A stretch of DNA of 64,000 nt from Eledone cirrhosa (GCA_964016885.1 OZ024745.1:21514001-21578000); one strand, 5' to 3'. Shown: positions 16,791-62,133, counted from the stretch's first letter. Made by a program: numbers and translations. Notes: a model not told the origin generated them from the sequence alone.

Positions 16791-17500
16791 ATATCACGAT
16801 ACATTAACGGAGCCATAGACTCTCGCCGTTCCCTGTAAATAATGGGCTCAAAGGAGAGGAAATCCTGGGCACTTTAGAATACAATATGTTGAAAAGGTAA
16901 CACACTAGAGAGGGATACAGTGAGCCATCAATTATTGATGGCGCACTGTATCTCTCTCTAGTGTGTCACATTTTCAACATATTGTATTCTAAAGTGCCCA
17001 GGATTTCCTCTCCTTTGAGCCCATTATTTACAGGGAACGGCGAGAGTCTATGGCTCCGTTAATGTATCGTGATATTTCGCTCCTTATAATAGTCTTTCCT
17101 CTCTCTCTGTTTAGTTAAGCACGCTTCTCTGAGTGGTTTTGGGCTGCCCTTTCTAGCAGCTCGGCCCTCAGAGACCACTGGTTCACTGCCCTTAAACACG
17201 CTGTGACTTCTCTCTCCCACGTGTAGTTGGACGGTCGCTTTAAAAATTCTCTTAGTGTTGTCTGAAATGTATGGCCTAACACACGCTGATGAACCTGGGT
17301 TATTTCACTTCTCTCAACAACTTAATGGCGAAACAGATCACTTTGGATTTGTACGTGTGTTATATAGTTATAGAGGTATTTATTTACGCTTTAATTTATA
17401 TTTTTAATTATCGTCTCTATATTCTGCCTTCCATAGGTTATAGATTCCCTGTTTTATTGATGGCGCACTGTATCTCTCTCTAGTGTGTTACCTTTTCAAT
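16791..17500 (+). mobile_element. Non-coding ribozyme element family L: about 140-bp fold-back plus 522-bp direct-repeat unit
   Basis: Inverted arms about 16791-16932/16934-17075; 16934-16978 repeated at 17456-17499; TA-repeat flanks. Confidence 0.85.
17278..17361 (+). ncRNA. Type-I hammerhead ribozyme
   Basis: AACACACG-CTGATGA-(stem II)-GAAA-CAGATC ACTTTG GATTTG-TA-CGTGTGTT; 8-bp stem I, GUA cleavage triplet. Confidence 0.88.
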
Positions 17501-17543
17501 ATATATATATATATATATACATATCTATCTATCTATCTATCTA

Positions 17544-18150
17544 GGGGTGACCGACCTGTGGAATTATGTCGAACAGCTACTGTCACGTGTGTGACGCATC
17601 CAGTTGTCAGCCGAGTCCATCGTGAGGATCACCCCGCCGCATTCATTTAAGAATGAAGGAGAGGTGGTTTTCCTCTGTCTGGTGGCGATGACGAAAGAGG
17701 TAATATGGTGGACGAGGTTAAAAGTACTGAGGGCAAACACCTTTCTCTCCGGGCAACAACTTATCCCCTTCTTTAAGTTCCACTTCAGAAGGAAGGTGAG
17801 AGTGTAGAGAGAGGTGCTACACCCCAGTAAATTCGCTAAAGGTGGGTGAATGAGGCGAAAATGGTCCGAGTAAATGGACCTTCTCTGTATATAAACCTGT
17901 AGGTTGAGGAAGATAAACAGAGGGAAGACAGGAACACCTACAAAACGTGTTCCTGGTGTTGAGGGTTGTTCTATCCACGGGGTGTAAAACAACCCTGTAG
18001 TAACGTTCCCCCCTATTGGGGATTTCAATTGTTATTTTATTATATATAGTTTATTGTTATTTATTAATGTTAAAGTTATTTTTATGTAAAACCCCCGCGT
18101 CACGTCTTGTAATGTCCCATTTGTGTACGCCCCTGTGGCAAATAAAGAAA
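17544..18150 (+). mobile_element. 5'-truncated Tx1 relative in (TATC)n
   Basis: SAESIVRITPP...EVIWWTRLK...FFKFH homologous to ORF2 C-terminus at 5800-6117; (TATC)n on both sides. Confidence 0.9.
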
Positions 18151-20544
18151 GATATCTATCTTTCCCAAATAACCACCTTAAATTCTATCTGTTATCTGTC
18201 TTTTAATAAGATTTCTTTCCTTCTGACTTCAATTATTATTGTTTTTCTTTCTTTATTTTCTTTCATCGCTTCTGTCGTGTTATTTCTTTCTATTAATTCT
18301 TTCAGTTTGATTCTTTCATCTTCCTTTTCCTATCGATGTATTTATATATTTATTTATTTATTTACTTACAATGTTTTTCTTCTTGTTTATTCCTACATAT
18401 TCCTTCTTTCACTCGTTCGTTCCTTCATTCTTACTGCCTACATTTTTCTACATTTCTATCATTTTCCTCCCTCCTCTCTTTTCTTTCCTTCTTTCTCTCC
18501 TCATCCACTCCTTTCGTGTTGATTATTTTCTTCTTTATCATTTTGTCTGTTTTAAACAAAAACAAAAACAAAAAATTATAGCAAAAATAAAAATAAATAT
18601 ACATAAACAAATAAACAAATGAAACAATAACATTACATGTTTTTTGGGGTTGTTATTTTGCTATATGTTTTATCTATAGTTTTGTTGTGTTTTGTTTTTA
18701 ATCTCCATTTTTTTTATCATCCTTTTCGCAACTCGATATTTTGGAAGCCATTTTGGAAAGAATAGAAGCAACGTGTGATATGAATGTAAAAGGGTATGTA
18801 TTAATCTCTCTGTGTGAATGTGTGTGTGAATATATGTGAATGTATACATAAACACACACACACATACACACACAGATACACACACACACATACACACAGA
18901 GGTACACGCATACATACATACACATGTACACATACACAAACACACACGTACACACAAACACACGCACACACAGGCACACATATGTATATATATGTAAAAA
19001 TATCTATATCTATCAATAGATACATATACACACCCTTCTCCCCACGCACACACACACACACATATATATATATATATACATATATATATATATATATATA
19101 TATATATATATATATATATATATATATATATATATATATATATATATATATATATATATAGATATATATATATGTGTGTTTATTTAAGTTTATCTATTTA
19201 TATATATTTATTCATAGATACCTACAAGAATGCACACATACACACATATTTATATATAACTTGATATATATATATATATATACATAGATGCATATATATA
19301 TATATATAGAGAGAGAGAGAGAGAGTGAGAGAGTGAGGGGGGATGAGGTGAGAGGGAGAGAGAGGCTAAGGAGGAGAGGGAGGGGATGAATGTGTTGTTT
19401 TTCTACGGGTGTTAATTTTCATGTAAGTAATCACGTATTGAGTGTACATACATGTGTGTATGTGTATGTTTATATGTACATGCGTCTGTGTATGTACACA
19501 TATATGTATATATATATATATAGATATGTACGTATGTGTGTAGGTATATATATATGTGTGTATGTGCGTGTGTCTGTCTGTACAGGTGTAGGCAAACATA
19601 AATGTATATATTTTCATGTCATTTGCCATATATGTAAGGTATCCTCTCTGTTCTTGTGCATACATATGTGAAGAGCAATATTGTTATATATATTACCATC
19701 TCCAATCTCTCTCTCCCTTTCTTCCCCTTCTCTCTCTCTCTCTCTCTCTCTCTCTCTCTCTCTCTCTCCCTCTATTCCAAAAGAAAAGACAAGATGGAGT
19801 AGGAATTGACAACCAGCAAGAAGAGGAGGCACAAAAGAGGACATGTTGTCTTTGAGGAGGTCACAATGTGAGGCAAAAGAACGTCAACAAACCAGTGAAT
19901 AACAAGTAATAAAGATAAGGAGGAAATCATCTGGTGTATGTGTTTCTTTTTATTTGGTAATACTGGCAACATAACCATCACTATATATATATATATATAT
20001 ATATATATATATATATATATATATATATATATATATATATATATATAATATATATATATATATATATATATATATATATATATATATATATATATATATA
20101 TATATATATATATATATATATATATATATATATATATATATATATATATATATATATATATATATATATATATATATATATATATATATATACATGTATT
20201 ATACATGCATAGGTGTGTGTTTACCTCTCCATTTTCTTTCTATATCTCTCTATGTATCTCTTTAATTACTTTCTTAGCTCTATATGTTTATCTACCATTC
20301 TATTTATCTGTACATCCCATAGCATATATTTCTAACAATATAATTGCCGCTCCCGTATTTATGTTTACAGAGAGAAAGGTGGATATATATATATATATAT
20401 ATATATATATATATATATATATATAGAGAGAGAGAGAGAGAGAGAGAGGGACTGTTTATTAATTTATTCATTATAATATAATTATGTGCAAATACATTTA
20501 CTCATCCAAAATTTCATAAAGTATCATAACACTCATATACGCAT

Positions 20545-21190
20545 ATCTACCATAGATCCGAGGGAAAAAATACGTTAGATGGTATAATCCACCATCCAAC
20601 CTTTCTGTACAAAACACCATGTCGTAAAACATTTTCTTTCCGTAACGGCCATATATTCCAGAAGCTGATCAACTAAACAGTATTATGGCAAGTATCATCT
20701 GCGCGAAAACTATAGACATATCCAATGCTATCAAGAGCTACAACCATATCTAAGACAGAGAGCCGGCATGTAATGAAACACGAGCCTTCGTTCCGTAGAG
20801 GGCAGATACCTAGAGAAATACATTGTTTACACGGCTTATGTTTCCACTAAAACTATATAGCACTCTCTCAATAAACATGAATATACGGTTGTTTTACTGA
20901 AAGGTCACTTTAAAGGTCTGATACGATAAGAAATATAAAGAAAGTCTTACAAAAACAAAACCTACAGTGACCACACTACAAGATCTAACTACATTAAATA
21001 ACAACTCGTGTAGTTTCTGATCAAATTATCATAAACTATGCTTGTGTAGGAAAGCAGCTGATACATTTGAAAATATATAGCTTAATCAGAGAATAGTCCC
21101 CAGCAAAACCATACGTTCCAAATCATATATATGCAAAACACAACACTTTCGACGTAGATTTGGAATAAGAGAGAGTACTGCAGGACATTC
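20545..21190 (+). pseudogene. Heavily decayed Penelope-like coding fragment (linker plus GIY-YIG region)
   Basis: Fragments KYVRWYNPPSNLSV, FRNGHIFQKLIN, IKSYN, VEGRYLEKYIVYTAYV, GHFK, AKPY occur in the expected order, with many lesions. Confidence 0.6.
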
Positions 21191-60604: not shown

Positions 60605-60675
60605 TGTGATATATATTTCAATGACGACACTGACCACACTGTTCTGTGTGCGAGTGTCGTGTCATCATCAGACAG
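60605..60675 (-). ncRNA. Type-I hammerhead ribozyme, mirror copy of 61278-61349
   Basis: TCATCAG at 60665-60671; intact core on the minus strand. Confidence 0.8.
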
Positions 60676-61277
60676 CTTGTTACATAATAAGGTTATGTTT
60701 CCGAGGCAATCCAGATTGAATCGACATGGGAACGGATGAAGTTCGTGCTTTTGGGTTTTTCATCCGTTCCCTTGTGAGTACCAATTCACCCCCACCGGTC
60801 TGCGCAAGCGCATGTCCGAAGGAAGTTGACCATTAACCACCGCAGATTTCAACGAAATTCGCTGTCAGTTCACCCTCTCAGCCAAAACAATGGCCCACCT
60901 ATGCCCTACCAAAGTTTACTGCGACCCATCACGACTGTGGTAGTCAGCCGAAAGCCAGAGGGGATGGGAGGGTGTTAGTTTTTATAGGTCATAATACTAC
61001 CTTTCACTAAGCGTTGACAGCAAGACTGACCATCAACTCATAAGGGAAAATAAAATTAATTCTAGGTACCATGTTTTTACATTGGAAGTTAAGAGTGAGA
61101 GTTGTAAATAAAAATTAAAAATTAAAATCCTAAGTCAAATATCAGAGATTATAAATTAAACAATTAAAAAATAAAAAAATTCGAAATTCAAAAATTTTTC
61201 AAGTGATAATTCGGATTGAGTAAAAATATCGATTCAATCTGGATTGCCTCGGAAACATAACCTTATTATGTAACAAT

Positions 61278-61349
61278 CTGTCTGATGATGACACGACACT
61301 CGCACACAGAACAGTGTGGCCAGTGTCGTCATTGAAATATATATCACAG
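61278..61349 (+). ncRNA. Type-I hammerhead ribozyme with extended stem II
   Basis: CTGT-CTGATGA-TGACACGACACT..CACAC AGAACA GTGTG..AGTGTCGTCATT-GAAA-TATATA-TC-ACAG. Confidence 0.87.
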
Positions 61350-62133
61350 CATTATTATTAAAGGTCTTGAACATCTGAAACTACTTCGCTTTTCCTTATT
61401 CGATATTTACTACGTCACTCCTGTGGAAAAAGTACGTTGAGTGCTTGAATTGAATTGCATCAATGTTTACCCTAATATATATATATATATATATATATAT
61501 ATATATATATATAGATAGATAGATAAATCTACCAATAGATCTACCAATAAATCTACCAATAAATCTACCATAGATCTATATGACATACATACCAACACAC
61601 ATATATATCCTAGAAACGATCGTAAAATGATGAATTTTTTAATATAAGGAACTTGTTCTTTGTTTTATTCATTGTTTTTATTAATTTATATATATATATA
61701 TATATATATATATATATATATCTTTTCACTTCATAAACCTTGTTTGTAAATAACATTATTCTTTCTGCACCTTCTCTTTAACATGTGCGACACCATACTA
61801 ATACATATCACTATCATTTGATAATGCATAAATGCTGAAACTGGTAAGAGACAATTATTAAATATATAAATAGATAAATAAATGGCATTGTTAAATAATA
61901 AATAAATCAACTAATACCTTAACACTTCACACAAAGTAAAACATTTCGTTTTAATCATTTTCTAACCCAGAAAAAAGAGAGAGAAATAAGAAAGGAAAAA
62001 AATATTTTTTTCTTCCTAATAATCGTTTCTTTCTCCCTGTTTTCATATATATATATATATATATATATATATATATATATATATATATATATATATATAT
62101 ATATATATATATATATATATATATATATATATA

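Follow-up and report, generated by a model that had tools for sequence, protein, structure and literature searches.

Penelope-like elements, the closest relatives of telomerase, are known for a tail at one end only, inverted pseudo-long terminal repeats (pseudo-LTRs) and insertion at TA targets (PMC8557442, PMC3846280). Among those with a C-terminal endonuclease (EN+), the Hydra clade, as described by Craig et al. 2021 (PMC8557442), combines one open reading frame (ORF) of ~700 amino acids (aa), the motifs RW[RK] and DKT, a CxCX5C linker, no CCHH motif and a hammerhead with a (TA)n target, inverted pseudo-LTRs and the one-ended tail. We find these features, the hammerhead as a core motif, in a 64,000-nucleotide stretch of the Eledone cirrhosa genome (GCA_964016885.1 OZ024745.1:21514001-21578000; hereafter the window, with positions counted from its first letter) and in related copies elsewhere in that genome. 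From ~16 kb on, (TA)n runs in the window are broken by short, often palindromic insertions, many with a hammerhead core, and a bulged hairpin recurs near the ends of a number of them. The text of PMC8557442, supplements aside, describes no conserved hairpin ('stem-loop' has 0 occurrences), and the tails of 30-40 bp published there for Penelope-like elements compare with ~65-118 nt here, bounded by two hairpins.

The one in vitro study of such an enzyme concerns Poseidon_Ac of the anole (Frangieh et al. 2024, PMC11167929), for which internal starts at two tail-flanking sites matching genomic ends are reported, along with cutting and extension of both target strands and dispensable hammerhead cleavage. 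A stem-loop near the hammerhead is already in print as the start for a Penelope-like enzyme in one Poseidon element, and the text of that paper does not identify the binding motif. Poseidon_Ac differs from the elements studied here in being a single element of another clade, for which the text gives no doubled signal, no fixed spacing and no rule of one end of each kind; the text of a supplementary figure closes with a small hairpin whose 3' side holds UUGAAC, which may be a distant echo (PMC11167929). Retrozymes without long terminal repeats (non-LTR retrozymes) are tandem non-coding units with type I hammerheads, held to have arisen from Penelope pseudo-LTRs (PMC7229834; bioRxiv 10.64898/2026.07.22.740005). 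Neither text, preprint supplements aside, names a signal by which an enzyme would recognise them, and the words 'tail', 'hairpin' and 'stem' have 0 occurrences in the text of the preprint. We found no description of the bulged hairpin in the literature covered, outside which lie subscription journals and Repbase notes; a known clade carries an apparently undescribed doubled RNA signal.

The hairpin is real. A strict scan (R-Y-Y-C, 3-7 Watson-Crick inner pairs, a TT or TA bulge, G-A-R-Y) returned 10 sites in six families of the window (A 1, B 1, C 3, D 2, G 1, M 2). When the 53,486 bases outside repeats were dinucleotide-shuffled 100 times, the mean was 0.34 +/- 0.60 and the maximum 3. A 790-kb sample of the genome picked independently of the motif gave 55 strict matches, compared with 3 in the reversed sequence, and a (TA)n run lay 55-115 nt downstream of 34 of the 55 (5.5% of 7,641 random positions); for 12 of the 55 a run lay at the same distance upstream too, as expected of palindromic insertions. 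The ten hairpin strings first reported for the window all occur where they were placed. Those of A, B, C, D and G pass the strict scan, while those of M, L and X (a relative of B) are mismatched in the window copy and fit within the family. The site of family H begins at 61409 and not at 61417, the window copy being a mutated version of a family form ACTC-CGT...ACG-TT-GAGT. The site of family F was rejected as a member, as neither F junction is followed by a hairpin of this form; an early junction count for F had been swamped by a low-complexity anchor. None of the 4227 families of Rfam matched the window at gathering score, and sub-threshold hits were repeat-driven microRNA models.

Fifty hairpins could be put in register and 6 could not. 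In these 50 the bulge is TT in 33, TA in 9, TC in 7 and TG in 1, the first outer pair is G-C in 36 and A-T in 12, and the inner part ranges from 6 to 71 nt. With 58 hairpins anchored by sequence alone, the first outer pair is Watson-Crick in 51 (33 in shuffles) and the three inner pairs in 42, 34 and 26 (24, 16 and 15). Outer pairs 2-4, the central CTC/GAG, are nearly invariant and hence uninformative on covariation, so that the proposal of covariation in both stems holds for the first outer and the three inner pairs and not for outer pairs 2-4. Inner pairs 2-3 include 5 G-U and 0 A-C combinations, which favours the sense RNA as the folding strand. As a separate observation, one Hydra family (locus L307, ~5891, +) has a single-base bulge in its first hairpin (H1, see below), ACTC-GTCC...GGAC-T-GAGT, with the junction still at -7 to -5.

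Judged by their sequences, the hairpin families are the ends of Hydra-clade Penelope-like retrotransposons, together with non-coding derivatives, and not the unrelated ribozyme families they had been taken for: at the DNA level X resembles B at 78%, protein identity among A, B, C and G is 32-44%, and the pseudo-LTR origin means that the hairpin is common by descent. Copies were fetched for eight families from this 3.0 Gb, simple-repeat-rich genome, and in addition for G, by way of other loci and a pattern search. The sequences of A, B, C and G continue into a start codon and a reading frame. Family N, which lies outside the ten first listed, is present in at least 150 copies, of which many contain 713-codon frames, and one full-length copy has a 709-aa frame with YRDD and a C-terminal YIG motif, that is, a reverse transcriptase (RT) and a GIY-YIG endonuclease in a single ORF; the long open frames of family G share this N-terminus and RT. 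N shows RWR and SDKT, all five N-termini that were aligned (A, B, C, N and locus L321) show RW and DK, and G is alike. N and five homologues have the CxCX5C linker, no CCHH, and endonuclease CxxC and CxH motifs, and C-terminal fragments upstream of C and of two other motif families are of this CxCX5C, CCHH-free type as well. The CCHH motif of Neptune, Nematis and Poseidon is absent from the family N endonuclease, and a Nematis identity for the proteins was dropped in favour of the Hydra clade after comparison with the published Hydra description (PMC8557442). Identity among the proteins of hairpin-bearing elements is 28-45%, and their homologue clusters include coral, anemone and jellyfish proteins, which agrees with the published Hydra-clade host range. 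Pfam, NCBIfam and a sequence search of solved structures gave no match for the 709-aa protein; its predicted fold (predicted local distance difference test, pLDDT, 93.7) matches reverse transcriptases, with TERT at the top and TM-scores near 0.32.

Hammerhead core motifs occur in A, B, C, D, H, L, M and X by motif scan only, with a variant core in N; motif and Rfam scans found no canonical core in G, Rfam being without a match at gathering score. Tandem non-coding units were found for D (522 bp), L (541 bp), H (1311 bp, in which no long reading frame was found) and M (period ~515 bp). These four share with non-LTR retrozymes the tandem, hammerhead-bearing, non-coding organisation, and D, L, H and F show the retrozyme form of a tandem non-coding unit with a hammerhead; A, B, C and G are instead truncated ends of coding elements. 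Two side observations concern the autonomous families. Family N is young, with copies 95-100% identical and many whole frames, and is a good natural source for biochemistry (locus L262, 2149-4275, +). In family G, whole elements are arrayed head to tail every ~3.54 kb (L407-L410), and the hammerhead core looks atypical.

Although one hairpin per element had been assumed, full-length elements hold two, H1 and H2, in the order hammerhead, H1, variable spacer, H2, start codon. The target of the hairpin families is (TA)n, and insertion ends are bimodal in each of nine families: every hairpin family has two sharp (TA)n junctions, a short one before H1 and a long one before H2, the long junction lying 58-110 nt after the start of H1 and the tail measuring ~65 to 118 nt. 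Copies that read through the long junction have H2 directly behind it. This second hairpin was foreseen and then found in B (11 of 29 hits) and G (20 of 30 fetched hits), using patterns that excluded only a pure TA continuation, and a start codon follows each H2; in C it was seen in one locus, and those of D, L and M are present in the window itself. A variable hairpin ending ~12 nt before the long junction was considered as its signal and rejected, since read-through copies show H2 and folding of the spacer lacks conservation. In three families linked with CCHH-type, non-Hydra proteins, tails are short and no bulged hairpin lies at the junctions. Apart from these results, one family (L321, ~8364, +; L271, ~5704, minus) shows three consecutive sharp (TA)n junctions with no clear motif.

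The near-invariance of CTC and GAG is also what a DNA site would show, and the motif might act in DNA, with the endonuclease recognising two sites in an integration intermediate and resolving it at the short and long junctions. Resolution by the endonuclease has been put forward as the origin of the tail (PMC8557442), and tail DNA was required by the endonuclease of the fly Penelope (as cited in PMC11167929). Two halves 6-71 nt apart and a covarying inner stem suit a single-stranded fold, however, and H2 is missing from most inserted copies yet marks their end. We hold a DNA site to be very improbable.

The distance between hairpin and junction follows a ruler. Each junction was scored as an interval that allows for likeness to (TA)n, and 24 of 34 hairpins had a mode drawn from at least 2 copies. 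Counting back from the hairpin start, a last element base at -7 is allowed by 21 of these 24, at -8 by 18 and at either by 23, and 271 of 339 junction copies agree. The spacing is thus constrained, as had been supposed, at 7-8 nt rather than the 4-18 nt first given. Conversely, when 44 junction clusters were defined without regard to the hairpin, 21 had one 3-12 nt downstream (0.37% per background position), the others including Hydra copies with mutations, repeats, and families whose clade is a different one or unassigned. Among the unassembled contigs of a sequencing run, which is possibly the source of this assembly, loose (TA)n ends lie 3 and 4 nt before H1 and H2 (144 and 77 contigs), distances that correspond to the right edge of the ambiguous intervals.

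Of 50 hairpins, 48 have A or T at -6 of the linker between junction and hairpin, and 47 at -5. Pairing of A/U-rich patches with the nicked (TA)n primer might set the junctions alone, leaving the hairpins to serve translation or RNA stability; H2 sits shortly before the start codon, and non-Hydra families have sharp TAT junctions without such a hairpin. We find this account the least credible of those considered. In B and H the short junction falls exactly at -8, the base at -7 being replaced by target T in 21 of 30 and 7 of 7 copies, so that the junction position is not set by pairing alone, and it does so across this mismatch despite longer TA-like patches nearby. Both hairpins are moreover kept by the non-coding units, and the same spacing recurs in two independent hairpin copies.

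The same fixed spacing would be expected if the hairpins directed cutting of the RNA 7-8 nt upstream, by the element protein or a host nuclease, followed by target-primed copying from the two 3' ends. Docking of a nuclease on a bulged stem is a common design, which counts for such cutting. Yet a cut at the short junction would strip both hairpins from the template, and the finding of one short and one long end per insertion, set out below, would be left without a reason. The hammerhead is excluded as the cutter, and as the origin of either junction, since, in the ten families with a visible core, 48-98 nt separate the core end from H1 downstream. The anole protein, in addition, starts internally on uncut RNA and needs sequence downstream of its starts (PMC11167929). 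Taken together, these points make RNA cutting unlikely.

The inverted insertions combine the two ends in a regular manner. Among 130 inverted insertions without an internal TA run, 106 join one short and one long end, 1 joins two short and 1 two long ends, and 22 have an ambiguous arm, so that 106 of the 108 cleanly typed insertions have one end of each kind; the B loci in this count were fetched with a tail-bearing query, and with B excluded 75 of 90 are of this type. Read by eye, the insertion called as two short ends has one of each, and none clearly has two short ends. Either arm may be the longer one: in 43 insertions mapped on a reference unit the arm with the short end is longer in 16, that with the long end in 25, and the two are equal in 2. 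At least 11 of the 43 have arms that cannot have been copied from one another in either direction, a finding that speaks against fold-back from one primer. In B, C, L and A, the two arms of an insertion resemble each other more than they resemble arms of other insertions.

These arms bear on a further possibility, namely that both junctions are stops, an antisense template or a folded-back complementary DNA (cDNA) being copied until synthesis halts some bases short of the hairpin, much as telomerase does at its template boundary, or DRT10. Stem-loops set such a stop in TERT and DRT10 (PMC12632851), self-priming on an antisense template has been proposed for Penelope palindromes (PMC3846280), and arms share variants in 4 of 7 families. 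Reaching the long junction would, however, require passing H1, yet short and long ends pair one to one; the insertions whose arms cannot be copied from one another and the excess of G-U over A-C also speak against it, and the in vitro starts of the anole enzyme coincide with genomic ends (PMC11167929). We consider stops at the hairpins quite unlikely.

Relatives in other hosts preserve the arrangement. A search with the alignment of five N-termini found 21 loci in marine metagenomes, and no relative turned up among viral contigs. A hammerhead core precedes the frame in 11 of the loci (30-45% protein identity), and 10 of these 11 have two hairpins, mostly GCTC...TNGAGCAC, with hammerhead, H1, H2 and start codon again following in that order; these ten include one near-identical pair and two further close relatives. 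Loci without a hammerhead, ten in number and mostly truncated or rearranged, have two, one or no hairpin. A junction is seen in one metagenome locus only (L391), where it is compatible with about -8 to -1, too loose to count.

In light of these results, the hairpin is a conserved, doubled RNA element of Hydra-clade elements that likely anchors the RT and would thereby fix the first copied base 7-8 nt upstream. We think it probable that each hairpin anchors one RT and that the two enzymes prime from opposite target strands. One protein would sit on H1 and another on H2, probably of the same transcript, while the GIY-YIG endonuclease would nick both strands of the (TA)n target. Each target 3' end would then pair over ~3 nt with the A/U-rich linker before a hairpin and prime cDNA synthesis, the 7-nt linker spanning the distance from hairpin to active site and offering its A/U-rich part to the nicked (TA)n primer for pairing. 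The two cDNAs would run upstream, stop at variable points and be joined in the middle, and the tail would be the RNA between the two hairpins. Priming of this kind from opposite strands would yield an inverted repeat with a tail on one side only, and the non-coding units D, H, L and M would have spread because both hairpins are kept. Twin priming is known from L1, where two target 3' ends likewise prime on one RNA and give an inversion. The second start of L1 is opportunistic and occasional, whereas in the Hydra elements both starts appear fixed and signalled. More tentatively, we propose that twin priming may be obligate and RNA-programmed, with one transcript, two identical protein-binding hairpins and two RTs placed 7-8 nt from their starts. 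The initial annotation had suggested a cis-acting signal that positions priming by the Penelope-type enzyme; this idea finds support in the fixed spacing, the second hairpin at the second junction, the retention of the motif in distant relatives and its absence from the three non-Hydra families.

Comparison with other enzymes sets this arrangement in context. In R2, a structured 3' untranslated region in which two stem-loops matter binds the retrotransposon protein and places the template, as the hairpin would here; synthesis in R2 starts at the RNA 3' end, downstream of the structure and at one site, whereas here the start would be internal, upstream of the structure and doubled (PMC11194090). 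With telomerase and DRT10, which are sister enzymes, the elements share a primer-pairing patch by the first templated base and a stem-loop whose distance is fixed; in those enzymes it lies 5' of the template and brings copying to a halt, and the hairpin described here lies 3' of the first copied base (PMC12712713, PMC12632851). For telomerase, 3 bp are enough and as much as 7 nt of primer can be held (PMC12712713), and the prevalence of A/T at -6 fits primer pairing of that kind.

Several points weigh against twin priming from two hairpins. All of the evidence comes from insertions that are no longer active. With a TM-score of about 0.32, the resemblance of the fold to TERT is weak, and the anole start was reported inside an AC-rich stem-loop, a different geometry (PMC11167929). 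The ruler leaves out another 336 anchor hits that were classed as indels, subfamily variants or continuations other than TA, microhomology to (TA)n broadens most junction intervals to 3-5 nt, hairpin starts were chosen by the analyst near junctions, and H1 of family L lies off the ruler with its junction at -12 to -9. The covariation rows are related and the shuffle ignores kinship, so that significance is overstated; when the test is confined to the 25 metagenome rows, significance is reached by the first inner pair and no other. Several H2 inner stems consist of one or two pairs only, and free-energy folding often favours alternative pairings over the bulged hairpin, from which we conclude that the fold may need the protein. 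Three insertions appear by eye to have two long ends, likeness between arms is not significant in D, H and M (p 0.06, 0.11 and 0.94) and cannot separate one RNA from two RNAs of one source locus, and one hammerhead-bearing metagenome relative (L380) is without both hairpins.

If correct, twin priming from two hairpins would constitute a self-contained, two-ended integration mechanism, account for the one-sided tail and the inverted repeats of all Penelope-like elements, and provide a portable tag of 20 nt by which a telomerase-related enzyme could be made to start within any RNA. Because the hairpin is doubled, found across the clade and fixed in spacing, the integration mechanism becomes testable: a lost hairpin should lose an end, and a shifted hairpin should shift it. 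The hairpin is also the likely signal by which non-coding retrozymes borrow the enzyme, and can serve as a compact RNA marker of Hydra elements. The enzyme is small (709 aa) and, paired with so short an RNA tag, could be of use for target-primed gene insertion, and the kinship of Penelope-like elements with telomerase gives the arrangement a bearing on template choice and on one-tailed inverted insertions.

Table 1. Hairpins, hammerhead cores and insertion boundaries in the window.
Feature	Position	Strand	Basis
Family L H1 in inverted arm; arm ends at long junction (16791)	16846..16870	-	sequence
Family L H1 (541-bp tandem non-coding unit); junction 9-12 nt upstream	16996..17020	+	sequence, junction scoring
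Family L H2, overlooked in the initial annotation; one change in 3' strand of window copy	17079..17120	+	
Family L hammerhead core motif	17286..17333	+	motif scan only
Family G H1, pseudo-LTR end of autonomous Hydra element	25571..25594	-	strict scan
Family G, further copy	35217-35240	+	
Family G, further copy	49314-49337	-	
Family A palindrome	29562-29790		
Family A hammerhead core, within the palindrome	29608-29643	-	motif scan
Family A H1, autonomous Hydra element	29796..29816	+	strict scan
Family D complete insertion: inverted arm, short junction 29909; 522-bp unit; tail, long junction 30745	29909..30745	+	
Family D H1, first copy	30114..30137	+	strict scan
Family D H2, TCTC-CAA...TTG-TC-GAGC, 8 nt behind long-junction position; overlooked in the initial annotation	30232..30252	+	
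Family D hammerhead core motif	30501..30537	+	motif scan
Family D H1, second copy	30636..30659	+	strict scan
Same-form hairpin GCTC-TGTA...TACA-TT-GAGC, family outside those first listed	40451..40484	-	
Family B hammerhead core	40616-40655	-	motif scan
Family B H1, autonomous Hydra element; short junction after 40848, long after 40940	40856..40875	+	
Family C H1, autonomous Hydra element	41027..41051	-	strict scan
Family C hammerhead core	41260-41306		motif scan
Family C H1, further copy	55523-55547	+	
Family C H1, further copy	9032-9056	-	
Family M hammerhead core	42219-42263	-	motif scan
Family M H2, 8 nt behind long-junction position	42418..42439	-	
Family M H1	42803..42828	+	
Family M H1, further copy	42500-42525	-	
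Family M H1, further copy	29209-29234	-	
Site F, tail of 449-bp hammerhead-bearing unit; motif absent, excluded	45738..45763	+	
Family X hammerhead core	50549-50585		
Family X H1, relative of B	50656..50677	+	
Family H inverted arm ending at short junction	60548-60724		
Family H hammerhead core	61282-61337		
Family H H1, corrected register, 1311-bp tandem unit	61409..61442	+	

Other insertions in the window differ from the hairpin families. Family F (45294-45795, +) is a 449-bp tandem unit with a hammerhead core and two sharp junctions ~58 nt apart, is without the Hydra-type hairpin, and shares part of its tail with a related family. A non-Hydra Penelope-like 3' end with a CCHH-type endonuclease and a ~45-nt tail lies at ~16010-16789 (-) and has no bulged hairpin. 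The ends of a CX4CXXC/CCHH-type family with a 40-nt tail and a short hammerhead core (27730-27942 and 30924-31131) serve as a negative control, and palindromic (TA)n insertions with tails of 30-40 nt, again without this hairpin, lie at 58984-59349 and 39800-40131.

The remaining features are of other kinds. A nearly whole non-LTR retrotransposon occupies 752-6117 (+), with a first frame followed by endonuclease and reverse transcriptase frames of 789 and 359 aa with one stop between them, and 3' fragments of it occur at ~17553-18152, 26755-27341 and 31624-32390. Two other non-LTR reverse transcriptase fragments lie at 6504-8402 (-) and 12968-14925 (+), the second of which ends in C2H2-like zinc fingers. 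The family M copy contains an apparent tRNA-derived short interspersed element (~41746-42065, +), and a 70-bp minisatellite (33045-33575) and a 14-bp tandem array (47397-47675) are also present.

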